From Anaerolineae bacterium (GTDB taxonomy: Bacteria; Chloroflexota; Anaerolineae; UBA1429): DNA of 64,000 nt. This document shows, piece after piece, positions 36,949 through 56,832 of this stretch (position 1 is its first letter; each line of letters starts with the position of its first letter). Location of the stretch: the NCBI GenBank assembly GCA_963675785.1, contig OY776562.1:1440001-1504000 (forward strand), given 5' to 3'. Both the position numbers and the translations under genes were made by a program. The notes under the pieces were generated by a model, which saw only the letters and a program-made list of their open reading frames with translations, made no database searches and was not told the origin of the DNA.

Positions 36949-39900
36949 ATGTCACTTCAAAGAGTTCTTTTATCTCTCGTGCTCATCCTCTCTTTCCTAG
37001 TAAACCCCATATCCGTGATTGCTGATAATAACCAACCTTCTGAAGAATCTATGAGTATTGCAAGCCCGACTGTGGATCCACAAGATACAGAAACCGCCCC
37101 TGAGCAAATACCCGCAGAATTCGATGACCTACCAGAGGATATAATAGCTCCTACTGATCAATCCTCATGCGACGCGACCCTCAAGCTAGAAGCCTCTAGC
37201 ACCACGGTAACGCCAGGAGATACCATCGAACTTTCTTTTGGCCTCTCCTTTGTAACCGAAACCACCCCTGGACAACTAGAAATTGTGCTTCCTAAGGGTG
37301 TATCTGCGAAAGAGCCCTTGATATGGGACATCTCGGAAGATTACGCGCAAACGGTTCAAGTCCAGATAACTGAGGATATCCTCGATCTTGACGAGTTATC
37401 GCTTACCTTTACCCCCAACGACTATGCCTGGCAGCTCGAAGAATCGATCTATTTGACCTGCCTAGGTGAACGTCAGAGTTACATCTTGCAGGATCAAAAG
37501 TCAGTCACCACATCCAATGATCGTTTGGGCGTAGATTTTGGCAAAGCCGATCTTGCCGACTTGTACGTAGAGGTACAGCCTCTTTCCATCGCTCCCTATT
37601 CGGCGCAAACCTCTGATGAAATGCTCTATACCGTAGAGGTAGATGCCTGGTCGTCGGGAGAAAAGGACGCTGCGCTGACCTCTTTTGAGACACCCGTCAC
37701 AATGCGCATCAATATGGATGGCATTGTCGATATTGCCGATTTGCCCACTTATCAGGCCATATTCGCTGGCTATCTCGATGAGGAAACGGGTAAATGGGAG
37801 ATCCTTCCTGCCCACCGCGAGGGCAATACAGTCACCTTTGAGACTAACCACTTTTCGATTTTTGGCGTGGGTACGGTGGACGTGCCAACTACGGGCTGGG
37901 CTCTGGCTTATAACGAGCCTCAGGTCTCGTTGTTCAGCGGCGGCATGACCTATTCCTATCCCATTGAGCTAGTAGCAGGCCGCAACGGCGCCACACCGGA
38001 TGTAACCCTCACCTACAACAGCCGACGTGTCGATGGCATCCTCACCTGGGTGCAGAGCGACTGGGTGGGCATGGGCTGGACGCTCGATACGATGGAGATC
38101 GTGCGCAAGATCACGCCAGACTATGCGCCCGCTTCTTCCAACTATATGGATTATTCCTGGTTGTGGGGCTACACCTACTGGGAAAACGAGTTCGTGCTGA
38201 TGTACCAGGGTACGGCGTACACCTTGATACCACAACAAAGTAATCGTGCTTACGGATTGTACTCTTGCGAAGACGAACAGTTCCTCAGGATTCAGCGCTT
38301 TAGCAACGTTACCGGATGTACTGGAAGCTCGGCTAACGCAACCGGTGAATACTGGATCGTTACGACAAAAGATGGCACTCAGTACCAATTGGGATACAAC
38401 GCTGACTCTGAACAAACAGTGAGCATGAACTCCAGCATCTATCAAGTACCCGCCAACCCCAACGAAAGCAACTATGCTGGCCAGGTTAGCGGCAAAGTGA
38501 CCTATCGCTGGCGGCTGGACAAGATAACCTATCTCAATGGAGAACGCATCACTTACGAGTACGCCGAATCAGCTATTACCAGCGGCAGCGCCCAGCGTGA
38601 ATACGCCAGCTATTTGACTGCGATTCGCTACAACTATACGAACTCTACCAGCTACAACAACAGCGTGCTCTTTGACCGCGCCCTGCGCAGCAGCGATAGC
38701 GTTGGCGATACCGATACCAGCACCGATTACTACTATCAGGATTACTATTTACGGGGCATCCGGGTGCAATCTTGGAATACCAGCACCCAGGGCTATGAAA
38801 CGATACGTGAATACCGCCTCAGCTATCAAAAGCAGGCCGTCAACTCGGGAGAGCACGATCCCCATCTGCGCCTGCTGACCAGCATCCAGGAATACGGACG
38901 CGGCGGATATGGAAGCAGTTCGTCTTTGCCCGCCACAACCTTTAGCTACACGCGATACGAGAACAAGACAGCCTGTTCCACCTGTACCCACTGGTTCGTG
39001 CCCACGCAGGAATGGCAACAAGAGTGTTTCCGCTATAGTCGACTGACTGCCATCAACAACGGCTATCATGGGACGACAGAGCTTGGCTATGAAACACCCG
39101 ATAGTGGTTGGTGGCATGCCCAAAACTATCGTGTCATAACGACGACCGTTAGCGACGGTCAGGGGGGCGGCTATCGGTACGCCTACTGCTATCCCTCCGC
39201 GCTGACTGACAGAGGTTACGACCTCGATGATACCTATGGATGTGACTATTACTCCTCCGGTGAGGAAACAGGAGACACACTCGTAGGTTATCATTGGGTA
39301 ATAGTGGATACGCAAGATATCAGTGGAAATACTTTGAGTAAATCCTCAACCGAATTCCGTATGAACTCTACGGCGAATCCAGATCGTTCAGTAGGAAGAG
39401 TTTATGTACTTATCGACTATGTTGAGACTGCTACAGGCTGGCTGACCTACAACAAGCAGATCAACACTTACACGACAAATACAACAACTTTCTCGAGCGG
39501 TGCCAGCTCATATTTCGTTGGACAATCCCAAGCAACGTATTATCGCTATGACGATGGATCTGAAAGGCACTGGGCCACACAATACTGGTACGACAATTAC
39601 GGAAATGTATCACAAATCCGCGAGTACAGCGACTTTGACGTCGAAACCCTCTATCGGTGCACGTATATCAATTATGCCTATAACACGGGCAGTTGGATCG
39701 TCTCGCTACCCTGTTCAACCGAAGTGTTCAACGGTTTCATGTCCCAGATCAGTGGCACCTATATCTATTATGACAACACTACCACTCTAGGTGCTGCTCC
39801 TAGTCAGGGTTTGGTAACCAAGACCGCTCGCTGGAATGGTACAGTACAACAGCAAACTACTGAACAGATACGCTACATTACCGTAGCTGGAGGCATCTCG

Positions 39901-42900
39901 GTTCCAGACCGTACGACAGATGCCCATGATAAACACACCACCGTAACCTACGCCCGCGACGGGTTAATCGTCACCAGCATCACCAACTCGGAAGGGCACG
40001 TCACAACTTATTCGTACGATCCAGGCACCATGCAAGTGACGAGGGTCAACGGGCCCAATACCGATGACAGCAACTGGGAAGCCAATCGCACTACCGCGCA
40101 TCTCCATGATATCACCGACTATCAATACGATGTCTTTGGACGACTGACGGCCATTATCGAACCTGGTGATACGCCATCCTACCCGACAAAGGTTATTACC
40201 TATAACGACACTGCGAACCCCTTGACGATTCGCACCTATCAGCGCATTGATTCCAACAGCTCTGCCACTTATAGCACCATCAGCGTCTACGATGGCCTGG
40301 GGAGGCTCATTCAGGAAAACAGCATCCCCTCAGATAACTCTAGTGCCATTGTTCATGCCTACACCTACTCACCCCTCGGGGTTGCCCGAGAATACGAACC
40401 TTTTTCCGCCAGTTACTCCACTGGCAAGATCACCATTCCCTCTGGCACGGCCTATACCTCGTACACGTATGATGATCTAGGACGGGTGACGGAGATCGCG
40501 TCTCCAGACGGCACCTCCACCACCTATGCTTACAAATCGACGAACACCACTTTCAAGACCATCTGCATCGATGCCAACGGCCATCAAACCATGACCGAAC
40601 AGGACATCTGGGGACACACAGTAGCCAGTCATGAGTATGAGGGAACATTCTCCACCCCTAACTGGAGCGCTAGCGCCTACAATACTGTGACCTATACCTA
40701 CGATGCGCTCGACCACCTTCTCAGTTCCGATGATGGCCCATCGGAAACGACCATGGAATATGATGATCTGGGGCGCAAAATCATGCTAGTCGATCCCGAT
40801 TTGGGGACATGGTACTATGCCTATGACACAATGGATCGCCTTATTGGCCAAGAGGATGCTCGAAATCAATGGACCTATTACTATTACGATGATCTAGGGC
40901 GTTTGATAGGGGAATATTGTCCACCTAGTACGCCGTCTCCCACTCTATTCAATCAAGGGAACTACAGCAATTCGCAGAGTCTCTGCACTGTAACATACCA
41001 TTACGACAACAATGATCCCGGGAATATGGGTGTGGGGCAATTACACTATGTAGAAAATGGGGATGGCTCTCACAGCTATGAATACGATGGCCGTGGTCGA
41101 GTGCTTACTGAGACAAGAGTCACTTACGACAGTAATCATAATGACGAATCTTCTCTATCTCTTAGAAGATTGCTTAACTCGGCTAACCAAATAACTTGCA
41201 AGCTGTTCACTGATCACTTTGATAGTCGTGCTTATATTTTTAACTTGTTCTACACCTATGATAACTACGGTCGTCTGGACACCATGGCGGACTCACAGTC
41301 AACCCCGGGTACCTCCAGCGCCGCCTACAATGCTTACGGACTCTTGGATACCCTTTCGGATTCGAAGACAATCTCTATCTCCAGCACCGATGATTACGAC
41401 GCTTACGCACGCCTAGTTCCCCCCCAACCGACTTCGACAATCTATGTCTCCAATGCTGATTATGACGTTTACGGACGCCTGACCAGCCTAGTCTACGGCA
41501 ACGGTACCAGTACAACATACACCTACAACAGCCCAACGGTAGACGGCGGACGACTGGCCTCCATCACCAGTGTCAAATACTTCCCAAGCACTTCCATTCA
41601 AAATCTAGTCTACGACTATGACAACGTCGGCAACGTCACCCAGATCATCAATCATTGTGCGCCCGGCGGTACCCAAACCACCAACTACACCTACGATGAA
41701 CTGGATCGACTATCAAGCGCCGTAGCTACCGGTGGCAGCAATACTTATAGTTATGCATGGACCTACGAACAGAACGGCAATATTGCCTCTCTGAATAGCA
41801 GTGCATGGAGCTACAACGCTGACCCTGACCACGGTGTCTCCACAGCCCAGGCAAGTAGTGCCAATTTTTCTCAGATCAATTATGGCTATGATCTGAACGG
41901 TAACGTAGTTTCCAGAAGTGTCCTTGCGACTTTGGGTGGAACAACTACCACCTACCAGTACAGCTATGACGAACAGAACGAGCTGGAGAGTATAACACGT
42001 AACAGTGCTTCTCTTGCCGCCTTTGGGGTGTTGGAGGGCGAATTACTCAAGAGTACTGTCAATGGCACCACCACCTACTATATCGGCAGCGATGCCGAAT
42101 ACAGCCAAGGCAGTAGCCTTGTTCGAACATACAATTGCTACTTTGGCGACCAGCTGGTGGCTGTGCAAGAGGTGGTCGGAAATCCTATATTCCCAAGTAG
42201 CACCAACCTCACCTATCTCTACCATGATCACCTGGGCTCCACCACTGTAGCCATCGACGCCACCACCAGCAAGGCCCAATACCTACCTTACGGCGGCCGC
42301 CTGGACAGCGTCGACCTGGGAACCAGCTACACCTACACCGGTCAACAAGCCCTCGACGGCCTGGACATCCTCAACTATGGTGCCCGCTGGTACGATCCCC
42401 TCACCGGCCGCTTTTTGCAGCCCGATACCATTGTGCCCCAGCCCTTCAACCCTCAGAGCTTGAATCGCTATGCGTACTGCTTGAACAACCCAATCAAGTA
42501 CACGGATCCTACGGGGCATGGTCCCTTCGAGGTGCTTGAGACTTTGGTGGGTGAGATAAACTACCTTGGAGTCGAAGAATATGAGATATTTGACATTATG
42601 AGTGATGGTGATCTTGCACTGGCTTCTCAGATCTTCTCTCTAGTAGAAGCCGCCGGCCTTGAGCAAATGACAAACTGGTACCTATCTAGAGATAGTTTAG
42701 CACGATCCCAATTGGGATGTGCCCTGTTTACCTACATCGCTTTCGGAGAAATGGGGAAACGAGCATCTTCTGCCAGTTTAGTATTCTGTGGCTCATTGGT
42801 CAGAGGTGCCGATGGTGGGCGGATTGCTGAAGAAAACCCCTGGGTTCCTGTGGGCACAATTGCGTTTAACGACAGATTGATTGAAGGAGAATTAGCCTCT

Positions 42901-43146
42901 GGTGCTTTCGAAACTCTGTTTAGAACGATCGCACACGAGTTGCAGCACTTAGCAGATTGGACGTTCATTGTTCCTTCCAAAAAGACCGGGTATATTTCGG
43001 ATGAGAATATGGAAATCTATTCGGGATTGCGAGAATCCTATGTAAATCCTAATGAGCAGCCATATGAGGCATATCGGACACAATTAGTCGAATCTAGAGC
43101 CTGGGATAACGAAGATATCTGGATGGAAAGTACCTTTGGTCACTAA
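36949..43146 (+). CDS. Sec-exported RHS/YD-repeat polymorphic toxin with SpvB-like domain and C-terminal HExxH metallopeptidase
   Basis: Signal peptide and NHFS motif. SpvB/TcB-like YSYPIELVAGRNGATPDVTLTYNS...GMGW. Many YD repeats. RHS core YTGQ..YGARWYDP..GRFLQPD..LNRYAYCLNNPIKYTDPTG. Tip contains AHELQH. Confidence 0.9.
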   Translation: MSLQRVLLSLVLILSFLVNPISVIADNNQPSEESMSIASPTVDPQDTETAPEQIPAEFDDLPEDIIAPTDQSSCDATLKLEASSTTVTPGDTIELSFGLSFVTETTPGQLEIVLPKGVSAKEPLIWDISEDYAQTVQVQITEDILDLDELSLTFTPNDYAWQLEESIYLTCLGERQSYILQDQKSVTTSNDRLGVDFGKADLADLYVEVQPLSIAPYSAQTSDEMLYTVEVDAWSSGEKDAALTSFETPVTMRINMDGIVDIADLPTYQAIFAGYLDEETGKWEILPAHREGNTVTFETNHFSIFGVGTVDVPTTGWALAYNEPQVSLFSGGMTYSYPIELVAGRNGATPDVTLTYNSRRVDGILTWVQSDWVGMGWTLDTMEIVRKITPDYAPASSNYMDYSWLWGYTYWENEFVLMYQGTAYTLIPQQSNRAYGLYSCEDEQFLRIQRFSNVTGCTGSSANATGEYWIVTTKDGTQYQLGYNADSEQTVSMNSSIYQVPANPNESNYAGQVSGKVTYRWRLDKITYLNGERITYEYAESAITSGSAQREYASYLTAIRYNYTNSTSYNNSVLFDRALRSSDSVGDTDTSTDYYYQDYYLRGIRVQSWNTSTQGYETIREYRLSYQKQAVNSGEHDPHLRLLTSIQEYGRGGYGSSSSLPATTFSYTRYENKTACSTCTHWFVPTQEWQQECFRYSRLTAINNGYHGTTELGYETPDSGWWHAQNYRVITTTVSDGQGGGYRYAYCYPSALTDRGYDLDDTYGCDYYSSGEETGDTLVGYHWVIVDTQDISGNTLSKSSTEFRMNSTANPDRSVGRVYVLIDYVETATGWLTYNKQINTYTTNTTTFSSGASSYFVGQSQATYYRYDDGSERHWATQYWYDNYGNVSQIREYSDFDVETLYRCTYINYAYNTGSWIVSLPCSTEVFNGFMSQISGTYIYYDNTTTLGAAPSQGLVTKTARWNGTVQQQTTEQIRYITVAGGISVPDRTTDAHDKHTTVTYARDGLIVTSITNSEGHVTTYSYDPGTMQVTRVNGPNTDDSNWEANRTTAHLHDITDYQYDVFGRLTAIIEPGDTPSYPTKVITYNDTANPLTIRTYQRIDSNSSATYSTISVYDGLGRLIQENSIPSDNSSAIVHAYTYSPLGVAREYEPFSASYSTGKITIPSGTAYTSYTYDDLGRVTEIASPDGTSTTYAYKSTNTTFKTICIDANGHQTMTEQDIWGHTVASHEYEGTFSTPNWSASAYNTVTYTYDALDHLLSSDDGPSETTMEYDDLGRKIMLVDPDLGTWYYAYDTMDRLIGQEDARNQWTYYYYDDLGRLIGEYCPPSTPSPTLFNQGNYSNSQSLCTVTYHYDNNDPGNMGVGQLHYVENGDGSHSYEYDGRGRVLTETRVTYDSNHNDESSLSLRRLLNSANQITCKLFTDHFDSRAYIFNLFYTYDNYGRLDTMADSQSTPGTSSAAYNAYGLLDTLSDSKTISISSTDDYDAYARLVPPQPTSTIYVSNADYDVYGRLTSLVYGNGTSTTYTYNSPTVDGGRLASITSVKYFPSTSIQNLVYDYDNVGNVTQIINHCAPGGTQTTNYTYDELDRLSSAVATGGSNTYSYAWTYEQNGNIASLNSSAWSYNADPDHGVSTAQASSANFSQINYGYDLNGNVVSRSVLATLGGTTTTYQYSYDEQNELESITRNSASLAAFGVLEGELLKSTVNGTTTYYIGSDAEYSQGSSLVRTYNCYFGDQLVAVQEVVGNPIFPSSTNLTYLYHDHLGSTTVAIDATTSKAQYLPYGGRLDSVDLGTSYTYTGQQALDGLDILNYGARWYDPLTGRFLQPDTIVPQPFNPQSLNRYAYCLNNPIKYTDPTGHGPFEVLETLVGEINYLGVEEYEIFDIMSDGDLALASQIFSLVEAAGLEQMTNWYLSRDSLARSQLGCALFTYIAFGEMGKRASSASLVFCGSLVRGADGGRIAEENPWVPVGTIAFNDRLIEGELASGAFETLFRTIAHELQHLADWTFIVPSKKTGYISDENMEIYSGLRESYVNPNEQPYEAYRTQLVESRAWDNEDIWMESTFGH

Positions 43147-43161
43147 CAGGCCTGAAGGAGA

Positions 43162-44331: not shown

Positions 44332-44356
44332 TAAGGGGCACTCTCTTTTACCAAAT

Positions 44357-44389
44357 CAAAGGGCAGCCATGAATTGTGGCTGCCCTTTG
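44357..44389 (+). terminator. Hairpin; intergenic segment homologous to 47119-47215
   Basis: caaagggcagccat/gtggctgccctttg. The related hairpin aaggggcaaccata/tatggttgcccctt is at 47119-47149, with similar downstream sequence. Confidence 0.65.
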
Positions 44390-44476
44390 GCTATTCGCAA
44401 TCATTGAAGCCACGCCCCACAAGGGAACCAATAAAACCATAATCTCATCCCAAAATACCATAGTAAAAGGAGGCAT

Positions 44477-44815
44477 TTGATGATTGATCCATATGAGAAG
44501 GCACTCGCAGCGCTGAATACCCTGGGCGAAAGCTTGTTCTATGATCAATCGATCGAAGAAGCAATTGAGAGCCTCAAGCATCTCTGTGCCGATGAGAGTG
44601 ATCCGGTTCACGCAATGAGACGAACCTCCTGGGATGACCTCGTCGATCACATGGACTATGTACTCAAGAACTGTGATGATGCGACTCTGAATGAGCTTAT
44701 GGAAAAATACTTTGGTCTCTACTCCAATCGTTACATAGGGGGCGGGCGGGCGTTTTTCCAAATGGTCCAACAGGTCATGATTGATGCCTTGGCGGATAGG
44801 CGAAGCAAATTCTAG
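44477..44815 (+). CDS. Small acidic helical hypothetical protein (candidate orphan immunity protein)
   Basis: Strong AAGGAGG RBS. 112 aa. Located in the toxin locus. Confidence 0.65.
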   Translation: MMIDPYEKALAALNTLGESLFYDQSIEEAIESLKHLCADESDPVHAMRRTSWDDLVDHMDYVLKNCDDATLNELMEKYFGLYSNRYIGGGRAFFQMVQQVMIDALADRRSKF

Positions 44816-45076
44816 CGTTGCCGTCTGTGCCTGAGCCATGACGGTGAATCGTTTGTGATTCGCCGTCTGGTGCAAAGCTCAGTTATAGTGTGCCCGAGGG
44901 CTAGTTGTCTATATCGCTGGCCCTCTCTAGTCATCACGTTTCGGAAACAGCATGGAGGACCTTCGCCTAAGTGTTCGTGGATGGCGTCTAGGGAATATGA
45001 TCGCATCTGGTCAGTTGAGTTCCAACAAAGAATTGGCTAATTGGATGGCCTTCAACGTGGCGGGAGATTGATTTCG

Positions 45077-45648: not shown

Positions 45649-45704
45649 AACTCATATAGAGCACAGTCCTCAGCTAACGCTGAGGACTGTGCTCTATATG
45701 AGTT
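45649..45704. repeat. Perfect 26-bp inverted repeat with 4-nt loop
   Basis: aactcatatagagcacagtcctcagc-taac-gctgaggactgtgctctatatgagtt. Confidence 0.95.
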
Positions 45705-47007: not shown

Positions 47008-47239
47008 AAGCCACAGAAGCCCCAATCACCAAATCCGCCCGCCTGATCATCATCAAGGGTTGACAGAGGGAGGATCAACCTAAAGGCGGTAGAGTTAGTG
47101 TAGTTCGAGCAAAACCTAAAGGGGCAACCATAAAATATGGTTGCCCCTTGCTATTAACAATATTGAAGCCATATCTCACACGATAACTGATCAAACCATA
47201 ATATAGCTATAAAAATAGTTCACCAACTCAGGGGGAAAC

Positions 47240-48181
47240 CTGCCTTACGGCGGCCGACTGGACAGCGTCGACCTGGGCACCAGCTACACCTACACCGGCC
47301 AACAGGCTCCTGATGGCTTGGACATACTCAACTATGGCGCCCGCTGGTACGATCCTCTTACTGGCCGCTTTCTGCAGCCTGATACCATCGTGCCCGAGCC
47401 CTTTAATCCTCAGAGTCTGAACCGCTATTCGTACTGCTTGAACAACCCAATCAAGTATACGGATCCGACGGGACAGGAGTATAGCGAAGATGTAGGAAGT
47501 CCATCAGGAACCACACTTGATGATCTCTACAGATTGACAGACACATTCGAAGTAACAGGTATGTTGATGGCCGGAGGAACTTCGTCTTTGGCGCAGTTGC
47601 GGGCAGCTCAGAATCTTGTAGGAGCATTTAGAAACATGGGTTATGGTACTGCACTTGATTGGTATATGAACACAACCGATCACTACAGGGATATGCTTGC
47701 AGGAGCTCTATTAGTATGCTTCACATATTCATCATGCGGAGATGCCGTATTCGACATTCACCTTCAAAGTCAGAACCCTAGGCCTACTCACCTTTGCTCG
47801 GGACTTTACTCTCACGAAGGAGACCCTACGAATGGAATCGGACCTCGAACCTTTCGATTATCAGCTTATCTCACCCAAGGTGATCTCACTGGTACAATCA
47901 GCAATCCATCATACTCTATCAGCCCCTCGTATCTTGAAGAGCTCGTACGTACTACGAGCCACGAGCCATCACATATGGCAGATTGGTTATCAGTAGAAAA
48001 CAGCATCCAGATAGCCGGCAGTGTAGAAAATATGAATTCTAATGATATCTCACTGTGGGAATCGCTCCAAACACAGGGCGGTAACAACAATGAAAACTAT
48101 GACGCGTATCGCGCCTCGATCACCGAGGAAAGAGCTTTCGCGCGAGAAGATTCGTGTTGGCATTCATTTTTCTATCGCTAG
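47240..48181 (+). CDS. Orphan RHS core fragment with alternative HExxH toxin tip
   Basis: DNA ~47239-47473 closely matches main RHS ~42280-42516. DPTG, then a different tip containing SHEPSHMADW. No ATG start. Confidence 0.85.
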   Translation: MPYGGRLDSVDLGTSYTYTGQQAPDGLDILNYGARWYDPLTGRFLQPDTIVPEPFNPQSLNRYSYCLNNPIKYTDPTGQEYSEDVGSPSGTTLDDLYRLTDTFEVTGMLMAGGTSSLAQLRAAQNLVGAFRNMGYGTALDWYMNTTDHYRDMLAGALLVCFTYSSCGDAVFDIHLQSQNPRPTHLCSGLYSHEGDPTNGIGPRTFRLSAYLTQGDLTGTISNPSYSISPSYLEELVRTTSHEPSHMADWLSVENSIQIAGSVENMNSNDISLWESLQTQGGNNNENYDAYRASITEERAFAREDSCWHSFFYR

Positions 48182-48197
48182 AGAAGTGGAGTAATTT

Positions 48198-49355
48198 ATG
48201 AACCGACACAGATTTTTCCGTTTCCTATTTCTTTTTATTTTACTATCTTCTTTTTTCTTCCTTGTTACGCAACTAGATAGATTAACCTGGTTCTGGGCTT
48301 CGCGTGATTTCGTAGGCTGGGACATCAGTGCAACTAGTCAAGACGATATCTATGTCGTAGGCAGCCATATCCTGCATTACGATGGGAAATGCTGGTATAG
48401 AATGGATTATGACGCTGTCGATCGAGTCTTTTCAGAGAATGAGGAAGAGAGCCACTCTTTTCTAGGGCTTTTCGAACTGCCTACTGCTTGGGGGTGGGCA
48501 CCTCCTGATTTTTATGACGTCGAGGCATATGATGCAAAGCATATCTATGCGGGTGGCGCAGCAGGCATTTTGCAGTGTGATGGCGAGAGATGGTCTGCGA
48601 TGCCAGTGCTCGATGAACTTGAGCTTTATCCATACGACATCTGGGTACAGAACCCAGATAGTATCTATGCTGTAGATGGTACACACGGCTTATTCTCCTG
48701 GGATGGACAATCATGGCGTCTTGAATCCCAGGATGTAACTTTTAACAGGCGTACCATAGAGACCTTGCATGTAGGGCTATTAGGCGGAAACGATGAATCT
48801 GTAGTAGCAATAGGTGATGGGCTGACGCTTTTGCTCAACTCGGGAGATGGTTGGCAGCAGGTTGACATCGCCCCACTGCTCGAAAACATCGAACTGCACG
48901 AACGCGCCAATGATAGCTATGGGTTGCAGCTCAACGGCGTGTGGGGACTCGACGATGGCAGGATTCTCGTTGGAGTTTGGGAGAACGTCTTTCTCACACC
49001 AAGAGTTCTATACAACTGCAAGTGCCTATTGTGCTACCAAGACGGTACTTGGACGGTGATTCCCACGCCCGACTATTGGCATCCATGGGAGATCCTCATC
49101 GATAGCCACGGCAACCTCGCTTCTCTCAATGAGTACGGTGAGCGTTATCAATATGTAACGAATGAGAACGAAGCAAACCCGATCTGGCAGCATATTGATG
49201 AAGAAATGAATCGTTATTGGGGACCATTTATCTTCTTGGATAATTCTAGCCTGCTGGTCTATGGTGGTGAGCTCTATACTTATGCGAGTTGTTCAGACTG
49301 CCCTGCAATGGTGAGCATCCCCTGTCGCGTAGAGTCATATGAGCTAACGTGGTGA
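48198..49355 (+). CDS. Beta-propeller-like paralog 3 (candidate immunity for the orphan tip)
   Basis: GGAG RBS, 16 bp after the orphan. N-terminal TM, LTWFWASRDF and CSDC. Ends YELTW. Confidence 0.8.
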   Translation: MNRHRFFRFLFLFILLSSFFFLVTQLDRLTWFWASRDFVGWDISATSQDDIYVVGSHILHYDGKCWYRMDYDAVDRVFSENEEESHSFLGLFELPTAWGWAPPDFYDVEAYDAKHIYAGGAAGILQCDGERWSAMPVLDELELYPYDIWVQNPDSIYAVDGTHGLFSWDGQSWRLESQDVTFNRRTIETLHVGLLGGNDESVVAIGDGLTLLLNSGDGWQQVDIAPLLENIELHERANDSYGLQLNGVWGLDDGRILVGVWENVFLTPRVLYNCKCLLCYQDGTWTVIPTPDYWHPWEILIDSHGNLASLNEYGERYQYVTNENEANPIWQHIDEEMNRYWGPFIFLDNSSLLVYGGELYTYASCSDCPAMVSIPCRVESYELTW

Positions 49356-49369
49356 AAGGATTCCACACC

Positions 49370-50524
49370 ATGACAGATACATCAACACCTCGCAGACACC
49401 GCTGGTGGCTGGTGCCGCTTGCTTTGGTCGTACTGTCTAGCCTACTCGTAGCAGATACCTATCTCCTCAAACCAACTATCGAACAACTGAGCTGGAAACT
49501 GGCCTCGTGCAATTTCGATGGCTGGGATATTGCAGCCACTAGCGAAAATAACATCGTTCTGGTAGGCAACCGCATCTTACATTACAACGGCCTCTTTTGG
49601 TATCGCGCGCCCTTTTCCTTCTTTCTCGCCGATGAGGAGGATCAGGCACTACAAGGCAAGCAAAACTCAGAACCCACTCTGCGGCGGAGCTATGAACCTC
49701 CTTTATCCGTTGTTGTGGCCTATGATGCCACCCATATTTACGCAGCAGGAACAACCGGCATCTTGCGCTTCAACGGCCTATGGTGGTCGCAAATGCCTGC
49801 TGCCAATGGACTAGATGCCTTTGCAAGAATGCTTTACGTTCAGAATCCCGACAGTATCTACGCTATCACGCGAGACAATGAGGTGCTTTATTGGAACGGT
49901 CGGCTCTGGGACAACTTGGTTTTGCCAGAACAATTCCATGCTTCTGCCGTAAGCGGCACAGATGACCACGTCGTTATAGTCGGGCGAAATCAAAAGGCCT
50001 TCATCCTAACAAATGGTATCTGGCAAGAGGTAAACATTCCCGAACTCGTCTCTGCTCTAGAACTTTCACAGTACGCCGATCCAGATTTTGGTCTTCAGCC
50101 CTTAACAGTCTACGGCCTAGATGATGGCCGGATTATCATTGGCATTTATGAGTACATTGATTTAGGAGTGATCGAGGCTAGCGTCAGTCGGCTTTTGCTT
50201 TGCTATAACGGCGGAGATTGGTTCACTGTTGATGTGCCCGAGGGCCAAACTCTGCTTGATATCAATGTGGATGATACAGGACTTTTGATTGCCTTTGATG
50301 TTTTCGGCAATAGATACAAGCAAATCCACACTGGTGAGAGCCTATCCTGGGAAAGAATCGATGATTCGGCGGCTCCATACTTTTGGGGGGCCTATACTTT
50401 CCTTGATTCTGGAGAAATGTTTGTGTACGGTCAAATACCCACTCGCATAGAACAACCCTGTTTCGACTGCTTGCCCGAGATCAAGCCGCCCTGTTCTGTA
50501 GAGCATTACGAATTGGCCTGGTAG
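49370..50524 (+). CDS. Beta-propeller-like paralog 4
   Basis: MTDTSTPRRHRWWLVPL, LSWKLAS and CFDC. Ends YELAW. Confidence 0.8.
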   Translation: MTDTSTPRRHRWWLVPLALVVLSSLLVADTYLLKPTIEQLSWKLASCNFDGWDIAATSENNIVLVGNRILHYNGLFWYRAPFSFFLADEEDQALQGKQNSEPTLRRSYEPPLSVVVAYDATHIYAAGTTGILRFNGLWWSQMPAANGLDAFARMLYVQNPDSIYAITRDNEVLYWNGRLWDNLVLPEQFHASAVSGTDDHVVIVGRNQKAFILTNGIWQEVNIPELVSALELSQYADPDFGLQPLTVYGLDDGRIIIGIYEYIDLGVIEASVSRLLLCYNGGDWFTVDVPEGQTLLDINVDDTGLLIAFDVFGNRYKQIHTGESLSWERIDDSAAPYFWGAYTFLDSGEMFVYGQIPTRIEQPCFDCLPEIKPPCSVEHYELAW

Positions 50525-50536
50525 AAAAGAGGGCAC

Positions 50537-51751
50537 ATGGCAGACACATCCACACCTCGCAAACGCCGCTGGTGGCTGGTGCCGCTTGTTTTCGTAATGC
50601 TTGCCGCCCTACTCATGGCAGATACCTATCTCCTCAAACCGGTCATCGAAAAGCTGAGCTGGAAGCTAGCCTCACGCAATTTCGATGGCTGGGATATCGC
50701 TGCCACCAGCGAAAACAACATTGTGCTAGTGGGAAGCCACATTCTGCACTACAACGGCCTATTCTGGTATCAAGGGCGCTCTTTCTTTGGCCATGCCGTT
50801 GGCCAAAATCCTGAAATACCTGAATACGCCCAAGAGCGAAATATCGATTGGCCAACCATGCAGTGGTTTGATACCTATCCGAATGGTATCTATACCGATG
50901 TCTATGCTTATGATTCAAGACACATCTACGCTGTAGGGACCGCGGGTATTTTGCACTACAACGGCTTGTGGTGGTCATCTATGCCTACTGCCTGGAGACT
51001 TGATCCTCATCCTTATCAGATTTGGGCACAGAGTCCTCGCAGTATTTATGCACTAGATCGGCAATTGGGTGTGCTTTACTGGAATGGGTGGCGCTGGAAC
51101 ACACTATCGTTGCCCATTCAGGGAGAACTCGAGTTCTATGCCGTAGGTGGCACCGAAGAACATGCCGTCATCACAGGCGCCTATGAAACAGCAGCAGACC
51201 GGGGACGTTTCCTGCTCATACAAGAGGGCGATAAGTGGATCAACGTCGATACCTTGCCGCTTGCAGCCGGCATCCCCCCCGATCCAGACAAGAGTGGCCC
51301 TTTACAGCTCGATCATATTTGGGGGTTGGATGATGGAAGAATCCTCGCCAGCCTCTCCGAACCAATATCATTCAGCATTTCCCAGTTTTCATCCTGCAGG
51401 CGACTTTTGTGCTACGAACAGGGCGAATGGTCCGCGATCGAGGTGCCTGATAGCAGCCTTTATACTCTTGAGTATTGGGAGCCTCGTGACATCCTTGCTG
51501 ATGAACAGGGGAACCTGCTCGTTTGTACGGCTTTCGATGACCGGATGCGCCAAACGCGAGATGAAAGCGGTGCTCTAGTGTGGCAGGCAGTAGATGAAAC
51601 AGATGACATCAATAGCGGGCTCTATACCTGGATAGATGCTCAGAACCTACTCGTCTATGGCGGAAAACCTGTCCGTCAAACGGGCTGCCTGGATTGCTGG
51701 CCTATTGTCAAGCCGCCTTGCTCACTGGAAAGATACGAATTGGCCTGGTAG
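50537..51751 (+). CDS. Beta-propeller-like paralog 5
   Basis: MADTSTPRKRRWWLVPL. Central region closest to paralog 1. CLDC. Ends YELAW. Confidence 0.8.
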   Translation: MADTSTPRKRRWWLVPLVFVMLAALLMADTYLLKPVIEKLSWKLASRNFDGWDIAATSENNIVLVGSHILHYNGLFWYQGRSFFGHAVGQNPEIPEYAQERNIDWPTMQWFDTYPNGIYTDVYAYDSRHIYAVGTAGILHYNGLWWSSMPTAWRLDPHPYQIWAQSPRSIYALDRQLGVLYWNGWRWNTLSLPIQGELEFYAVGGTEEHAVITGAYETAADRGRFLLIQEGDKWINVDTLPLAAGIPPDPDKSGPLQLDHIWGLDDGRILASLSEPISFSISQFSSCRRLLCYEQGEWSAIEVPDSSLYTLEYWEPRDILADEQGNLLVCTAFDDRMRQTRDESGALVWQAVDETDDINSGLYTWIDAQNLLVYGGKPVRQTGCLDCWPIVKPPCSLERYELAW

Positions 51752-51763
51752 AAAAGAGGGCAC

Positions 51764-52944
51764 ATGGCAGACACACCCACACCTCGCAAACGCCGCTGGT
51801 GGCTGGTACCGCTTGTTCTCGTGGTGCTGCTAATCGCTGGCGTGTTGATCTACCGTACCACACACCTAGAGCAGTGGAGTTGGTTTTGGGCTTCACGCAA
51901 CTTCATCGGTAATGACATTGATGCCATCGACGAAAACAATATCTATGTTGTGGGTAACTTTATCCTACACTACGATGGCATGCGCTGGTCACGTGTTGAT
52001 TACATTTTTGAAGATGGTATCTCGGGTGGCACAGGTGCCTCGCTAATACCCGCAAACGCTGGAAAATTCCTGGGACTGTTCTACAGACCAAGGCTCGCCT
52101 ATAGTTCGCAGAGTTTCAACTTGAACGACGTGCAAGCTTTCGATGTCAAGCATGTCTATGCTGTAGGCAAAGCCGGTATCTTTCAGTGCGATGGGGAGAA
52201 CTGGTCAGTCATGCCTATCGCCAACGGATTGACGCCGCAACCCGACAAAGTCTGGGTGCAAAATCCCACCAGCATCTACGCATTAGATGACGAATGGGGA
52301 GTGCTGCATTGGGATGGCCAGATTTGGGACGTATTGCCCTTACCCGCTAGTTTCAAAGCCAATGACATCGGCGGTACCACGGAGCATGCCATCATTACTG
52401 GCGATGGTCCTACATTATTGATGGAAACAGACGGTGTATGGGAACAAATCGATATCACCCCTCTTATCAGCGACATAGATTTGCATGAGCAGGCTGATGC
52501 AAGCTATGGTCTTCAGCCACGCAGAATATGGGCCCTATATTACGATGAGATAGCAGTCGAAATCTGTGAATACACTGTAGGCTCCCCTTTATCCCTCGAG
52601 GCAGAATAGGCTACAACACTAGAGCCTTGCTTCTGTACAATGATGGCGAATGGAACAGAATCGATGCCCCCGAGTGGTGGCAACCAGATGAAATACTATC
52701 TTGCCCTGGCTCCTGTCTGACCGCCTATGACTTTGGTGGAATATGGTACCAATACGTTGAAAAAAGTGACGGCAATGGTCGAACCTGGCAGATAACGTAT
52801 CCGTGGTTATGCACAGTGTTTGGCGGATATACTGCTTTTATAGACAGCGATCATCTTGTTGTCTATGGCGCAAATCTCGATATCTATGGCAACTTTGTGT
52901 CTCATTGTAGGGTTGAATATCTGGAAATCACACATTGGCAATAA
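51764..52944 (+). pseudogene. Beta-propeller-like paralog 6, frameshifted
   Basis: ORF stops at 52609. Another frame continues IGYNTRALLLYND, matching YNTRALLLYQND of paralog 7, to 52944. Confidence 0.8.
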
Positions 52945-53020
52945 GAAGTATGTCAGCTCATGGACGCAAGTGAACCTTTTCGTGATCGAGTAAAACATGC
53001 TCAAAGAGGAGCACCCTCCC

Positions 53021-54202
53021 ATGGCAAACACATCCACACCTCGCAAACGCCGCTGGTGGCTGGTGCCGCTTGCTTTCGTGCTACTGCTAACCACTGGTGT
53101 GCTAGCTTACCGCTCTACACACTTAGAGCAGTGGAGTTGGTTCTGGGCTTCGCGCAACTTCATCGGTGCAGATATTGATGCAACCAGCGAGGATAACATC
53201 TATGTCGCAGGCAACTTTATCCTACATTATGACGGCACGCGCTGGTCGCGTGCCGTCTACCCTTTTGAAAAGTATGACCTTGATAAAACACTGGAGCTTT
53301 GTTGCCCCAGGGGATATCGCAGTTTCGCAGGGCTTTTCGTGAGACCTTGGCAAGAATTTTACTGCACCTCTCAAGTCAACGATATCGAAATTTACGACGA
53401 AACTCATGTCTATGCTGTAGGACGTGCAGGTATTCTCCAAAGCGACGGCGTAACGTGGTCGGCCATGCCCATTGCCGAAGGGCTAGTGCCTTCTCCCTAT
53501 GGGTTGTGGGTGCAGAACCCTAACAGCATCTACGCCCTAGATAGCGATCTGGGCCTCCTGTACTGGGATGGCCAGATTTGGGACGTATTGACCCTGCCTT
53601 TCAGCTTCAAAGTCAATAGCGTCGGTGGCACAACGGAACATGCCGTCATCACCGGTGAAGGCCCGACCTTATTGATACAGAAAGACGGGAGCTGGGAGCT
53701 GGTAGATATTACCCCATTCATCGACGACATTGAGCTCCATCAAACTGTCGAAGAAGACTACGGCCTTCAACCCTATATGGTTTGGGCACTAGAAAGCGGC
53801 GATATTATTGTAGAGATCAGGGAGCAAGTTTATTATTCTCCTCTGTGGATTGGATATCGTATGACTACCTATAATACGAGAGCATTGCTTCTCTACCAGA
53901 ATGACGAGTGGTCTAGGATCAATACGCCAGAATGGTGGCAACCGCTAGAGATTCAATCCTACGATGGAGATACCTTTATAGCGTACCAAAATGTCGGCAA
54001 TATCTGGTACTACTTTAGCAAAGCCGCGGGAACTAGCTATCAAAACTGGACTGCTTGCAGCCCTAGAATATATCCAGAGCTTTATGGATTTCTGCGTTTC
54101 GTCGAACAGGGTCATCTTGTAGTATATGGCGGTGAAATAGATGCTTATGGTAACGGAACAACTCCTTGTCGCGTAGAGTACTATGATAGACTGCTATGGT
54201 GA
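53021..54202 (+). CDS. Beta-propeller-like paralog 7
   Basis: MANTSTPRKRRWWLVPL and THLEQWSWFWASRNFIG. Ends CRVEYYDRLLW. Confidence 0.8.
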   Translation: MANTSTPRKRRWWLVPLAFVLLLTTGVLAYRSTHLEQWSWFWASRNFIGADIDATSEDNIYVAGNFILHYDGTRWSRAVYPFEKYDLDKTLELCCPRGYRSFAGLFVRPWQEFYCTSQVNDIEIYDETHVYAVGRAGILQSDGVTWSAMPIAEGLVPSPYGLWVQNPNSIYALDSDLGLLYWDGQIWDVLTLPFSFKVNSVGGTTEHAVITGEGPTLLIQKDGSWELVDITPFIDDIELHQTVEEDYGLQPYMVWALESGDIIVEIREQVYYSPLWIGYRMTTYNTRALLLYQNDEWSRINTPEWWQPLEIQSYDGDTFIAYQNVGNIWYYFSKAAGTSYQNWTACSPRIYPELYGFLRFVEQGHLVVYGGEIDAYGNGTTPCRVEYYDRLLW

Positions 54203-54205
54203 AAT

Positions 54206-54242
54206 GCCAGGCCCTCGGTTATATCGAGGGCCTGGCTTGTTT
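54206..54242 (+). terminator. Intrinsic terminator
   Basis: gccaggccctcg/cgagggcctggc followed by ttgttt. Confidence 0.75.
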
Positions 54243-54271
54243 ACGAATCGCTCAAAGAGGAGCATCCTCTC

Positions 54272-55420
54272 ATGGCAAACACGTTCACACCTCACAAACG
54301 CCGCTGGTGGCTGCTGCCGCTTGTTCTCGTGGTGCTGGCCGGCCTCGTCATTGTCCTGCGTCCCACCATCACCCAGTGGAGCTGGGAGCGAGCTTCTTCG
54401 CGTGAGTTTTCTATTTATGACATGGATGCCACCAGCGAAAATAACATCGTCCTCGCCGGGGCAGGTATCCTGCGTTACAACGGCCTTTGGTGGCAACACA
54501 TCACTTATCCCCAGTGCCAGGAAGTTACCCAGGCAGAGGAAAACGTCTCTGCCGATCCTATCATAGTGGTTGAGGATATCGAGATTTGGAATCGTACCCA
54601 CATCTATGCTGCCTGCGGAACGCAAGGTATTCTGCGTTACAATGGTCTGTGGTGGCAGTTTATGCCCATCGCCAGAAACTATAGCACACACTGCTATCAA
54701 CTTTGGACTCAAAGTTCAAAGAGCATTTACGCCATTGACGAGATGCTAGGGTTATTGCATTCCGACGGTCGGATATGGAACAAGGTCTCACTCCCTGATG
54801 GCTTCAATCCCAGCTACGTGGGCGGAAACGATGAATACGTCGTGGTCCTCGAAGAAAATCAGGAAGGACTACAAGACATCCTAGTCCAATCAGATGACGT
54901 CTGGAATCTTGTAGATATCCAGCCACTTCTCATGGATGTTGAACCAGACAATGACTGTATCAACGCATCTTATTGCGAATACAGTCTATATCCCAACAAG
55001 GTATGGGCGCTCGAAGATGGCAGAATTATTGTGAGAGTATGCCAAGAAATTAGGCTAGGCGTCGTAACTCTCCGCTCCTGTCCCCTCTTGCTCTGTTACC
55101 AGGATGAAGATTGGTCAACGATTGAATCCCCTAATGATTCCTTTTATCCGACGCACATCATGGCAGATGATCAAAGAGGCTTGCTAGTGTACGGGGCAGA
55201 GGGAGACCGCTATCGTCAGATAGTTGCAGAGGAAGGCAGTGGCTGGGCGTGGCAAGAGATCGAAGGTAAGTGGCCAGGACGTATTCTGGGGTTCTCCACA
55301 CTCCTCGATACCTCCAACTTGTTGGTATACGGTGGCGAACCCATCCCAACTGACGCAATAGATATCCCATACACACTAGAAAAACCCTTTGAATTAGAAC
55401 ACTATGAACTAACTTGGTGA
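54272..55420 (+). CDS. Beta-propeller-like paralog 8
   Basis: MANTFTPHKRRWWLLPL and GILRYNGLWW x2. Ends YELTW. Confidence 0.8.
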   Translation: MANTFTPHKRRWWLLPLVLVVLAGLVIVLRPTITQWSWERASSREFSIYDMDATSENNIVLAGAGILRYNGLWWQHITYPQCQEVTQAEENVSADPIIVVEDIEIWNRTHIYAACGTQGILRYNGLWWQFMPIARNYSTHCYQLWTQSSKSIYAIDEMLGLLHSDGRIWNKVSLPDGFNPSYVGGNDEYVVVLEENQEGLQDILVQSDDVWNLVDIQPLLMDVEPDNDCINASYCEYSLYPNKVWALEDGRIIVRVCQEIRLGVVTLRSCPLLLCYQDEDWSTIESPNDSFYPTHIMADDQRGLLVYGAEGDRYRQIVAEEGSGWAWQEIEGKWPGRILGFSTLLDTSNLLVYGGEPIPTDAIDIPYTLEKPFELEHYELTW

Positions 55421-55478
55421 TAAGGGGCACTCTCTTCAACCAATCCAACTGGCAGACAGGTGTATCTCGGGGAGAAAC

Positions 55479-55949
55479 GTGCTCAACGGCACCACCACCT
55501 ACTATCGCGGCAACGATGCCGAATACGACGGCACCAATTGGTCGTACTATTACTACTTTGGTAGCCAGCAGGTGGCCGTGCGTGAGGGTTCCAACCTCAC
55601 CTATCTCTATCAGGATCACCTGGGCTCCACCACTGTGGCCATCGACGCCACCACTAGTAAAGCCCAGTATTTGCCCTACGGCAGCCGCCTGGACAGCGCC
55701 GACCTGGGCACCAGCTATACCTACACCGGTCAACAAGCCCTTGACGGCCGGGATATCCTCAACTATGGCGCTCGCTGGTACGATCCCCTCACTGGCCGCT
55801 TTTTGCAACATGATGGTATCATGCCTGATACCATCGTGCCCGAACCCTTCAATCCCCAGAGTCTCAATCGCTATTCGTACTGCTTGAATAACCCATTGCG
55901 CTATACTATCCCAAGGCAAATGCCCACTTGGGTCAGTAGTAGGGGGTGA
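55479..55949 (+). pseudogene. Orphan RHS core fragment lacking the toxin tip
   Basis: Matches main RHS from NGTTTYY through DHLGST and YGARWYDP to NNPLRYT, then loses DPxG and stops 13 codons later. Confidence 0.8.
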
Positions 55950-55954
55950 TCGTC

Positions 55955-56416
55955 ATGACTAGAAAAATTTCCTTAATATCTATCATATTCATCCTTATTT
56001 TAATAGCCATTCTATCGTACTGTTCTAAAGGAGACAATCAACAAGATAGAGAGGAGACAAATGATATGCTTGAAAGCCAATTAGTTACTGAGAATAATGC
56101 GGTTGTATCTCCGTCAGGACTGTATGTTCTTGAAATGATAGTCGGCAAAGTAGATGATGTATCCTCATTTAGTTTTTGTATCAAAGATGTAAAAGATAGC
56201 TCAGAAGTTTTCGTAAGCAATGATTATTACAGATTAAGAGATACTACTTATCTTTTATGGGGAGAAGATGATACCGTATGGGTATACAGTGGCGATCTAG
56301 GGACATTTTATTGGGAAAAAGAATCTGATAGCTGGCAAAAGAAAACTTATGCCGATAATATAGGCAAAGAAGTTCCACAAGCGCTAGAAGAATTAAGGCC
56401 TGATTATTTTAATTAG
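55955..56416 (+). CDS. AT-rich exported or lipoprotein-like hypothetical protein (candidate immunity)
   Basis: Hydrophobic N-terminus followed by LSYC. Acidic. Markedly AT-rich. Directly follows the RHS fragment. Confidence 0.65.
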   Translation: MTRKISLISIIFILILIAILSYCSKGDNQQDREETNDMLESQLVTENNAVVSPSGLYVLEMIVGKVDDVSSFSFCIKDVKDSSEVFVSNDYYRLRDTTYLLWGEDDTVWVYSGDLGTFYWEKESDSWQKKTYADNIGKEVPQALEELRPDYFN

Positions 56417-56544
56417 TTATAGTCAAAAAAACAGCCGTCAAAAGTATACCTAGACGACTGCTTTTGCTTCTTTAAATGCGTCTGGTGCACATTATCAATA
56501 TGTAGCAAGTAAAACGGAGCAGATCCGTTGTTCTGCCAATACAT

Positions 56545-56832
56545 TGACAAGACGACGAATCGCTATTGGGGACCGTTTGTTTTCTCGGATACTTCTAACT
56601 TGTTGATCTATGGCAGAGAACTTTGCACCTATGCGCGCTATTCAGACTGCCCTGCAATGGTGAGCATCCCCTGTCATGTAGAATCTTTCGATCTAGCATA
56701 GTGAAAGGATTCCACACCATGGCGGACACATCCACATCTCGCAAATGCCGCTGGTGGCTGGTGCCACTCATCCTGGTGGCGTTCGCCACCCTGCTTGTCG
56801 CAGATGCCTATCTCCTCAAGCCAGTTCAATAG
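56545..56832 (+). pseudogene. Remnant of a paralog 3-end/paralog 4-start junction
   Basis: Degenerate copy of ~49195-49475. Shares ttcagactgccctgcaatggtgagcatcccctgtc and gtgaaaggattccacaccatg. The leader ORF 56719-56832 stops after 37 aa. Confidence 0.8.

Follow-up and report, generated by a model that had tools for sequence, protein, structure and literature searches.

Tip switching with linked immunity is established biology of Rhs and WapA toxins, and in enterobacteria, as described for Salmonella, an rhs locus consists of a main gene and of orphan rhs-CT/rhsI modules that become active by recombination (PMC3967940). Here we describe a locus of related organisation in DNA of an Anaerolineae bacterium (contig OY776562.1, positions 1,440,001 to 1,504,000 of the forward strand); this whole stretch of 64,000 nt is called the window, and positions are counted from its first letter. 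The locus spans positions 36949-56823 and holds one main RHS gene, two orphan RHS cores, eight members of one paralog family (P1 to P8), one remnant and three unrelated small genes, with every long open reading frame (ORF) on the + strand. We regard it as near certain that the locus is of the polymorphic RHS toxin type and carries orphan cassettes. Our preferred reading of it, in which we have moderate confidence, is that the main gene encodes a Sec-exported polymorphic RHS toxin with a zincin-like C-terminal toxin domain (tip) that acts outside the cytoplasm, and that the paralogs form a homogeneous polyimmunity array of beta-propeller proteins, the specificity of which would be set by a single loop.

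The locus shares several traits with enterobacterial rhs loci in the form in which PMC3967940 describes them: a full-length gene precedes core fragments devoid of start and export signals, these fragments share DNA identity with the main gene as far as the point where the tip begins, a gene comes after each tip, and tips vary between strains on a constant body. It differs from those loci (PMC3967940) in having no type VI secretion system (T6SS) and a Sec signal instead, in that the genes after its tips belong to one large, membrane-anchored family, whereas those of enterobacteria encode small, unrelated, cytoplasmic proteins, and in that most of its paralogs have no tip in front of them. From WapA/WapI of Gram-positive bacteria the window protein differs in its SpvB domain, its HExxH tip and its membrane-anchored candidate immunity protein. 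To our knowledge, every WapA tip characterised to date is a nuclease whose immunity protein is small and cytoplasmic.

SpvB-RHS ('TcdB/TcaC-type') toxins with metallopeptidase tips (Tox-MPTase1-5, HopH1/M91) are a listed class, and the portions of PMC3482391 that list them give no immunity family for Tox-HopH1 or Tox-MPTase1-5. The main protein of the window has the organisation of this class (PMC3482391), with an N-terminal SpvB domain, RHS repeats and a C-terminal HExxH domain, but the window tips match none of the Pfam tip models of the class at E<=10. With TcB-TcC of the Tc (ABC) toxins the main protein shares SpvB; the TcdB mid-domain and the gatekeeper or integrin-like propeller gave no Pfam match on four main-protein segments at E<=0.1, and the TcA-type domain VRP1 gave no match in the genome, a negative that is weak because the control genomes gave no match either. 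In Salmonella Dublin, according to PMC13556075, the Rhs-M91 protein SED_RS06335 is toxic only if exported, acts in the periplasm and is neutralised by the membrane-anchored protein SED_RS06340; SED_RS06335 differs from the window protein in that it is delivered by a T6SS and has a PAAR motif, in that its host is a diderm, in that its tip is a recognised M91 domain, and in that it has a single immunity gene. The first-pass annotation of this DNA had proposed a system that attacks the cell surface proteolytically and carries surface inhibitors; an Rhs metallopeptidase with membrane-anchored immunity outside the cytoplasm had already been described (PMC13556075).

Homogeneous polyimmunity loci, which are strain-variable, tandem, same-strand arrays of closely spaced paralogs of one immunity family, have been proposed to give pre-emptive protection against the toxins of non-kin; as PMC3482391 presents them, they are never interrupted by toxin cassettes, and extended examples occur only in Proteobacteria, Bacteroidetes, Firmicutes and Actinobacteria, while immunity proteins in general are nearly all cytoplasmic. 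The window array has at least four tandem same-strand paralogs, short gaps and variation between strains, and so has the form of such a locus, with a putative role in immunity. It departs from the loci of PMC3482391 in that orphan modules interrupt it between P2 and P3 and after P8, in that it lies inside a toxin locus, in that its genome is of Chloroflexota type, and in that its proteins are membrane-anchored. The first-pass annotation had set apart, as unusual, an immunity family expanded beyond the number of toxins: the paralogs do outnumber the tips, but expansion of this kind was already known in the form of homogeneous polyimmunity loci (PMC3482391). A propeller-type immunity protein is likewise on record, namely Tsi1, the periplasmic immunity protein of the T6SS amidase Tse1, which has a partial beta-propeller (PMC3391265). 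The window candidates resemble Tsi1 in that they would be exported propeller-type proteins acting against an envelope hydrolase; they differ from Tsi1, which is small and has three sheets, in having about seven blades and a membrane anchor, and they have no sequence relationship to it. A full-text literature search, in which Chloroflexota RHS systems were not specifically sought, found no paper on a family of full propellers as RHS immunity proteins. We know of no characterised RHS system in Chloroflexota, the literature not having been searched for one. We conclude that the logic of the locus is already known, since orphan cassettes have been described, as have polyimmunity loci and Rhs-metallopeptidase toxins whose immunity protein is anchored in the membrane, and that the tip family, the propeller immunity candidate with its hypervariable loop, and the host lineage are new.

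Main gene, tips and tip exchange between strains

The host genome is a single contig of 3.22 Mb, 94.8% complete. In genome-wide profile searches all matches to the paralog profile (11/11) and all RHS cores (3/3) fall inside the locus, a clustering that is far beyond chance. Omp85/BamA gave no match in this genome in a search that matched seven diderm control genomes, and TssC (PF05943), searched for as T6SS marker to the exclusion of PAAR, VgrG and Hcp, gave no match, whereas the E. coli control did. FeoB encoded in the window, which gave the closest marker match, is 68% identical to FeoB of an uncultured Anaerolineales genome. Because Omp85 and TssC were not found in the genome, the description of the host as a probable monoderm and of the locus as T6SS-independent, both proposed in the first-pass annotation, is supported: as far as the absence of markers from one genome shows, the host is an Anaerolineae-like bacterium without Omp85, and its locus is independent of a T6SS.

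The SpvB domain (PF03534), single-copy in the genome, was matched on the main protein at E 1e-6 and, in a second scan, at E 7.2e-9 (35.7 bits against a cut-off of 22); the RHS/YD repeats were matched at E 3.9e-18 (PF05593) and E 6e-15 (TIGR01643); and the Rhs-associated core (TIGR03696) was matched at 75 bits over aa 1778-1857, with a core end motif of the PxxxxDPxG type (NNPIKYTDPTGH) directly before the tip. The N-terminus (MSLQRVLLSLVLILSFLVNPISVIA/DN) resembles, as judged by eye without a predictor, a Sec signal peptide, and the main protein would be exported by Sec. No wall anchor was recognisable in the main protein. RHS repeats, core, SpvB domain and orphan cores together bear out the main gene with orphans that had been proposed from the first reading of the sequence; the gene inventory of that reading is also correct, with the sole refinement that the tips of the window number two, not three, because the frame of orphan module 2 stops 13 codons past NPLRYT. 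RHS and TcB-TcC proteins enclose and cleave off their tips. In the window protein, for which the motif and the core family are what is observed, the SpvB/RHS shell would likewise enclose the C-terminal tip, and the tip would be cut off at the DPxG motif of the core.

The core DNA of orphan module 1 is 88.9% identical to 42281-42513 of the main gene, and that of orphan module 2 is 84.9% identical to 42203-42492. With both orphan cores, the identity to the 3' core of the main gene (84-89% at the DNA level) breaks off at the DPTG codons, and identity of this extent would let tips recombine onto the main gene. The sister-strain protein P0169 (contig of 211,628 nt) is identical to the window main protein over aa 1-1568 and has a different tip. 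Because P0169 and P0155 share aa 1-1568 exactly and differ in their tips after DPTG, we conclude that tip exchange between strains has happened. Even should the paralogs not be immunity proteins, the locus clearly exemplifies the switching of RHS tips among strains of a lineage that is uncultured.

The two tips of the window, tip A of the main gene and tip B of orphan module 1, are homologous, with 26% identity in an alignment of 202 columns (E 1e-9), and both carry HExxH, in agreement with the earlier claim that they belong to one family. A third tip (218 aa, with HESAH) follows the same DPTG motif in P0169. The three tips share 23-26% identity, and H144, E145, H148, E196 and E203 are invariant in all three. 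HExxH and a downstream Glu, invariant across three diverged tips, are the pattern of a zincin. A Pfam scan at E<=10 that included the M91 and Tox-MPTase models gave no match to the tips, and membership in M91 or Tox-MPTase was rejected on this ground; searches of PDB sequences and profiles gave no match. In a language-model atlas, the nearest named cluster of the window tips is Peptidase_M91 (scores of 0.85 and 0.88), and further neighbours of both tips are Tox-MPTase3, M35, M85 and M10, all of them zincin effector or toxin families; the atlas scores (0.78-0.88) lie below the tool's own mark of 0.9 and serve as leads only. Because the scores stay below that mark, we label the tips an unclassified HExxH...E family, probably of zincin-like metallohydrolases. 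An AlphaFold2 (AF2) model of tip A from a two-row alignment was unusable (predicted local distance difference test score, pLDDT, 36.9), with helices at the zinc-motif positions at low confidence only, and was not used for a fold search. Relatives of the tips were sought in three ways: in the protein database a region search returned the query alone and a profile search of longer proteins was empty; in 400 other genomes of the phylum a single, marginal match was found (E 0.0026); and pattern scans of metagenome and genome contigs gave none.

Contigs from Logan were compared with the locus for four public runs, X1 and X3 from one study and X4 and X6 from a second. X1 and X3 reproduce the window, including the frameshift of P6 at full depth, and X4 and X6 carry a diverged relative with other arrangements. 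In contigs of the second study the RHS core end at 47474 is joined to the first base of P6 at 51764 (sides of 71 and 94), and a contig of X6 has 761 letters ahead of P6, of which 94 lie on the core and about 667 nt are unmatched, a length that would suit a tip plus spacer. In X4 and X6 one extra G follows 52597 at full depth, and because of this extra G P6 is intact there. Weaker joints connect the end of P1 to the start of P5 or P7, place an RHS core end upstream of the small gene of 112 aa in another strain (47464 to 44447, in X4), duplicate the 112-aa module, and skip the small gene of 194 aa together with P2; several joints, the sides of which are short (19-35 nt), may be artefacts of repeats, and our conclusions use only the joint of 47474 to 51764 and the added G at 52597. 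Depth in X4 and X6 is greater over the paralogs than over the RHS body, and this is not a copy number, because the contigs of all look-alikes are summed. From the rearranged joints in the second-study contigs we infer that the array is plastic between strains and that at least one further paralog is preceded elsewhere by a tip-sized cassette.

Propeller paralogs as candidate immunity proteins

The paralogs are 37-56% identical in pairwise comparisons, with 48 invariant columns, and the intact members give E-values of 5e-189 to 8e-158 in the genome profile search. Their starts are preceded by a conserved AGGAG-ATG block (repeat family D5), and P3-P8 are six consecutive same-strand paralogs with gaps of 12-76 nt. 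In scans against Pfam and NCBIfam no family was matched at E<=0.01, the Imm, SUKH, SuFu and other described immunity families included, the only matches being sub-threshold ones of the anchor helix to DUF5989; the family, unrecognised in the first-pass annotation, thus matches no described immunity family in these databases. An AF2 model of P5, made from an alignment of the seven intact paralogs, has a pLDDT of 68 and a predicted template-modelling score of 0.70, and has a long helix at aa 14-46 that leads into an all-beta domain with some seven sheets of four strands each; residues 47-118 have low confidence. A Foldseek search of the model against the PDB returned beta-propellers only, with Ycf48 as the best match (E 1.7e-7), followed by Kelch and others, at modest template-modelling scores of 0.4-0.5. 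On these results the paralogs are single-helix-anchored beta-propellers of approximately seven blades.

An exhaustive profile search of 1.84 billion representative proteins gave six full-length matches, namely three sequences identical to proteins of the window, two near-identical ones from sister strains and a mosaic fragment of 284 aa; in the same search thousands of very large proteins matched repeatedly, in the repeat region only (profile positions of about 50-230). When 18 of the large repeat proteins were scanned, several had propeller matches (PSII_BNR, HVO_0234-like, Tectonin or Rax2), which adjoin Calx-beta, Ig-like or LapA domains, and five had no family. On account of the repeat matches and of this context in large proteins, the paralog fold and repeat belong to a large extracellular propeller superfamily. 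A database of 5.8 billion proteins held nine paralog matches, eight of which come from contigs that range in length from 211,628 to 3,217,757 nt, the upper end being that of the genome to which the window belongs. At E<=1e-10 the family was found in 0/40 related genomes (24 of the same family, 16 of the same class), GTDB species representatives gave partial matches only, at 24-38% identity, and a metagenome scan with P5 found no relatives. We conclude that the anchored form of about 390 aa is confined to this locus and to the lineage of a few near-identical strains.

The gap between tip A and P1 is 15 nt, the gap between tip B and P3 is 16 nt, and no other ORF fits between. Within the paralogs, variation is greatest at residues 79-120 (P5 numbering), which lie between the first and second blades: identity among the window paralogs is 5-28% there (50% for P1/P5), as compared with 42-91% in the blade that precedes them and 21-57% in the remaining propeller. 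P8-like proteins of other strains show 80-91% identity around a loop of only 38%. Mosaic paralogs of other strains (P0166, P0159 and P0006) combine a P5- or P4-like anchor, a foreign loop and a P1-like body; their loop is unlike any in the window (41-44% to P2), and their residues 121-260 are 87-89% identical to P1. The pattern of variation suggests that the loop between the first two blades is likely to be the specificity determinant. The first approximately 45 codons of P1 (43162-43290; MEVKTRRILLVLVPL…) are 18-42% identical to the anchors of the other paralogs, and P1-type proteins of sister strains carry the usual MxDTSTPRKRRWW anchor; a tip exchange may have had its right-hand crossover here.

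The proposed mechanism and its rivals

According to the reading that we prefer, the exported main protein would deliver a tip that is a zincin-like metallohydrolase of the unclassified HExxH...E family, and the tip would hit a target outside the cytoplasmic membrane of neighbouring cells. The gene directly after a tip would encode a membrane-anchored, approximately seven-bladed propeller that neutralises the cognate tip, the hypervariable loop between its first two blades would set specificity, and the extra paralogs would constitute a homogeneous polyimmunity array against the tip alleles of other strains. We think it reasonably probable that the propeller paralogs are the immunity proteins of the locus, and are slightly less confident that the tips are extracytoplasmic zincins. 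A complex prediction for tip A (aa 20-213) with the P1 ectodomain (aa 30-389), run with no control pairs, scored 0.00 and counts neither way.

RHS-associated cores occur in 164/401 sampled genomes of the phylum (E<=1e-8), a tally that includes four unpublished genomes (G266, G311, G382 and G184), and some arrays hold eight or more cores, 2-2.6 kb apart (for example in L138-L141). Among tips of >=100 aa in the sampled arrays of the phylum, 5/53 contain HExxH, in every case as HExxHxxQ at about 70% of tip length (loci L138, L140 and L141). The ORF after each of these five tips has a hydrophobic N-terminus, with hydropathy maxima of 2.84, 2.33, 2.24, 1.73 and 1.69; in the overall comparison 20/49 post-tip ORFs reach a hydropathy of >=1.8. 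The five HExxHxxQ tips have no Pfam match, DUF4157 included, and were rejected as kin of the window tips, to which hhalign detects no relationship (probability of 0.2%). The arrangement of an HExxH RHS tip followed by a small, exported protein nevertheless recurs in the phylum with other families, and this recurrence fits tips that act outside the membrane.

Among 80 loci of distant propeller homologs, one has RHS cores nearby (three cores, in the locus termed L026, from an uncultured Dehalococcoidales metagenome-assembled genome). In L026 the first orphan tip is followed after 68 nt by a propeller gene of 339 codons, which has a lipoprotein-type signal (…LVPSC/N), seven repeats of the paralog kind and one in-frame stop; it is an independent instance of the window arrangement, and its export signal, together with the extracellular nature of the distant relatives, favours a location of the propellers outside the membrane. 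The two halves of this propeller match the paralogs with hhalign probabilities of 97% and 95%; between the L026 tips and the window tips no relationship was found. The L026 array itself (8920-13509) is an orphan-only RHS array of three core-plus-tip fragments, with no full-length RHS gene adjoining. The genes downstream of the fragments encode the lipoprotein propeller, a cytoplasmic protein of 116 aa and an exported two-repeat protein of 199 aa, the last of which stands after a tip ending in HESFH, and a transposase fragment follows.

Several observations weigh against an immunity array directed at extracytoplasmic metallopeptidases. Proteolysis by the tips, their attack on the cell surface, their toxicity, their binding by the paralogs and immunity itself are predictions from sequence, and the term 'metallopeptidase' draws on the HExxH motif and on atlas leads below the mark. 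The anchor flanks are more net positive N-terminally in 5/8 paralogs, as for an N-in, C-out orientation, but the orientation is ambiguous for P1 and P5, where the charge is tied, and reversed for P2. Signs of decay are present in the locus: P6 is frameshifted, one orphan is without a tip, remnants persist and there is an insertion of low GC content. The paralogs, with about 390 aa, are of a large size for proteins that confer immunity. The P1-type paralog of the strain with the third tip, P0160, is 97-100% identical to P1 outside the anchor, and, should P0160 follow tip 3, adjacency need not imply allele specificity. The remaining 79/80 loci of distant propeller homologs have no RHS cores within the DNA examined, and in 20 RHS regions with 61 cores, drawn from 18 further genomes of the phylum, the paralog profile found no propeller at E<=1e-3; because of these two results, the pairing of propellers with RHS genes is not general in the phylum. 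The first-pass annotation had proposed that homologs mostly unlinked to RHS genes would refute its proposal; the outcome is split, close homologs all lying in this RHS locus and distant ones being linked at only 1/80 loci.

The size of the paralogs, the near-constancy of the P1-type paralog in a strain with a different main tip, and the absence of propellers from the 20 RHS regions would be at home in an alternative that we consider unlikely, namely that the propellers are not immunity proteins but variable surface partners of the RHS protein, such as tethers or display partners, receptors or decoys, or proteins of homotypic recognition, with immunity provided otherwise or unneeded. Such partners would also suit an RHS protein without a recognisable wall anchor, and distant relatives of the repeat that form part of very large surface proteins, alongside Calx-beta, Ig-like or LapA domains. 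However, a single tether or receptor needs neither eight diverged copies nor placement 15-16 nt past each tip; the spacing leaves no room for another immunity gene between tip and paralog; the second-study contigs put a tip-sized insert directly ahead of P6; and the variation, focused in one loop and accompanied by mosaics, is as expected of a specificity determinant.

A second alternative, to which we give a rather low probability, accepts the paralogs as immunity proteins and holds that the tips are not extracytoplasmic peptidases, being instead another kind of metal enzyme or non-catalytic; the toxin would then work in the cytoplasm or else on or within the membrane, and the propeller would perhaps face the cytoplasm. 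Opposed to this alternative are the invariance of HExxH and the downstream Glu in three tips of only 23-26% identity, the nearest atlas clusters of both window tips, which, as leads only, are all zincin effector or toxin families, the lipoprotein signal of the L026 homolog, and the five of eight anchors that favour N-in, C-out; the lack of a detectable link between the tips and any peptidase family, the useless AF2 model of the tip, and the tied or reversed anchor charge in three of eight paralogs are points in its favour. That the array is a decaying relic, its paralogs and orphans being leftovers of past cassettes that drift and gene conversion maintain although they now do little, is very improbable, since a main gene of 2065 aa and 7/8 paralogs are intact, the AGGAG-ATG start regions are conserved across the paralogs, 48 columns are invariant in paralogs of only 39-56% identity, and related strains keep intact copies, P6 included, even though the P6 frameshift at full depth in X1 and X3, the tipless orphan module 2, the remnants at 56466-56823, the 34%-GC insertion, and an L026 array that is orphan-only and has an in-frame stop in its propeller gene are of the kind that decay would produce.

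For the preferred reading, a polyimmunity array of propellers against exported toxin tips, a more far-reaching form can be stated, which we put forward tentatively: that the lineage-restricted anchored propellers are a new extracytoplasmic immunity class directed against a new zincin-like RHS family, that the one hypervariable loop sets allele specificity and is shuffled among the tandem paralogs by gene conversion, and that the paralogs double as the right-hand homology arm for tip exchange. The last element is suggested because each tip has RHS core on its left side and a paralog on its right; with the paralogs as homology arm, exchange would have left its traces in P1, with its divergent 5' end, and in the mosaic paralogs that other strains carry. 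If the preferred reading is right, the locus would provide a candidate toxin/immunity pair from Chloroflexota that operates outside the cell membrane in a bacterium lacking an outer membrane; its eight paralogs and three tip alleles would be a natural series for mapping specificity to one loop; and it would add a new HExxH toxin family, together with a beta-propeller fold newly used as an enzyme inhibitor. The background to this significance is PMC3482391, which lists no immunity family for the RHS-borne metallopeptidase tips (Tox-HopH1, Tox-MPTase1-5) and describes immunity proteins as nearly all cytoplasmic.

Features of the locus and neighbouring genes

Table 1. Features of the RHS locus (window positions) and HExxHxxQ tips of other loci of the phylum (positions within those loci)
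Feature	Position	Strand	Description
Main RHS toxin gene	36949-43146	+	2065 aa: signal peptide, unassigned N-terminal region, SpvB, RHS/YD repeats, Rhs-associated core, tip A
Tip A	42505-43146	+	213 aa, begins after YTDPTGH; HELQH and downstream invariant Glu; candidate zincin-like toxin domain
P1	43162-44331	+	389 aa, starts 15 nt past main stop; divergent N-terminal anchor
Small gene, 112 aa	44477-44815	+	no hydrophobic segment
Small gene, 194 aa	45041-45625	+	five hydrophobic segments, no family match
P2	45802-47007	+	401 aa from conserved ATG
Orphan module 1	47238-48181 (listed ORF 47318-48181)	+	about 75 codons of RHS core, then tip B
Tip B	47462-48181	+	239 aa, orphan module 1, HEPSH
P3	48198-49355	+	385 aa, starts 16 nt past stop of orphan tip B
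P4	49370-50524	+	384 aa
P5	50537-51751	+	404 aa, copy chosen for modelling
P6	51764-52609 and 52627-52944	+	frameshifted near 52600
P7	53021-54202	+	393 aa
P8	54272-55420	+	382 aa
Orphan module 2	55479-55949	+	RHS core only, tip lost
Small gene, 156 aa	55946-56416	+	N-terminal hydrophobic segment, lipoprotein-like N-terminus (…ILSYCSKG)
Remnant	56466-56823	+	one paralog's end and first approximately 33 codons of another; 76.6% identical to 49119-49474
HExxHxxQ tips, L138	7459-8190, 11973-12716		about 245 aa; L138, L140 and L141 are from three genomes of one genus
HExxHxxQ tips, L140	8151-8879, 11711-12448		about 245 aa
HExxHxxQ tip, L141	7808-8551		about 245 aa

Two of the small genes of the locus can be given a possible origin. 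The gene of 112 aa may be an orphan that once gave immunity to a tip of a different kind, now lost. The gene of 156 aa has a guanine-plus-cytosine (GC) content of 34%, and because the neighbouring genes of the locus have about 46-52%, it is probably a foreign insertion that took the place of a tip and the greater part of a paralog.

Just upstream of the RHS locus, on the - strand, lies a second propeller paralog array of the window, which is unrelated to the paralogs of the RHS locus: five genes for LVIVD-repeat beta-propeller proteins stand in tandem at 24604-34676 (361-746 aa; PF08309, E 7.5e-21 to 2.4e-155), with heparinase II/III-like genes on the flanks. Farther upstream on the - strand, an ORF of 862 aa (12969-15557) matches no Pfam family at E<=1e-5 and is overlapped by several shorter ORFs of the + strand, so that the coding strand is ambiguous. 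Two genes of the - strand are possible defence genes: one encodes an N6/N4 DNA methylase fused to an Mrr-type restriction endonuclease domain (17391-19070), and the other encodes a DUF2726 protein with a topoisomerase-type zinc ribbon (3866-4819). Within the RHS locus, long, perfect or near-perfect hairpins occur at 45653-45700, 47119-47149 and 54206-54236, with stems of 20, 14 and 14 pairs, in the gap before P2, the gap before orphan module 1 and the gap between P7 and P8, respectively; the three hairpins could be terminators, or recombination or REP-like elements.

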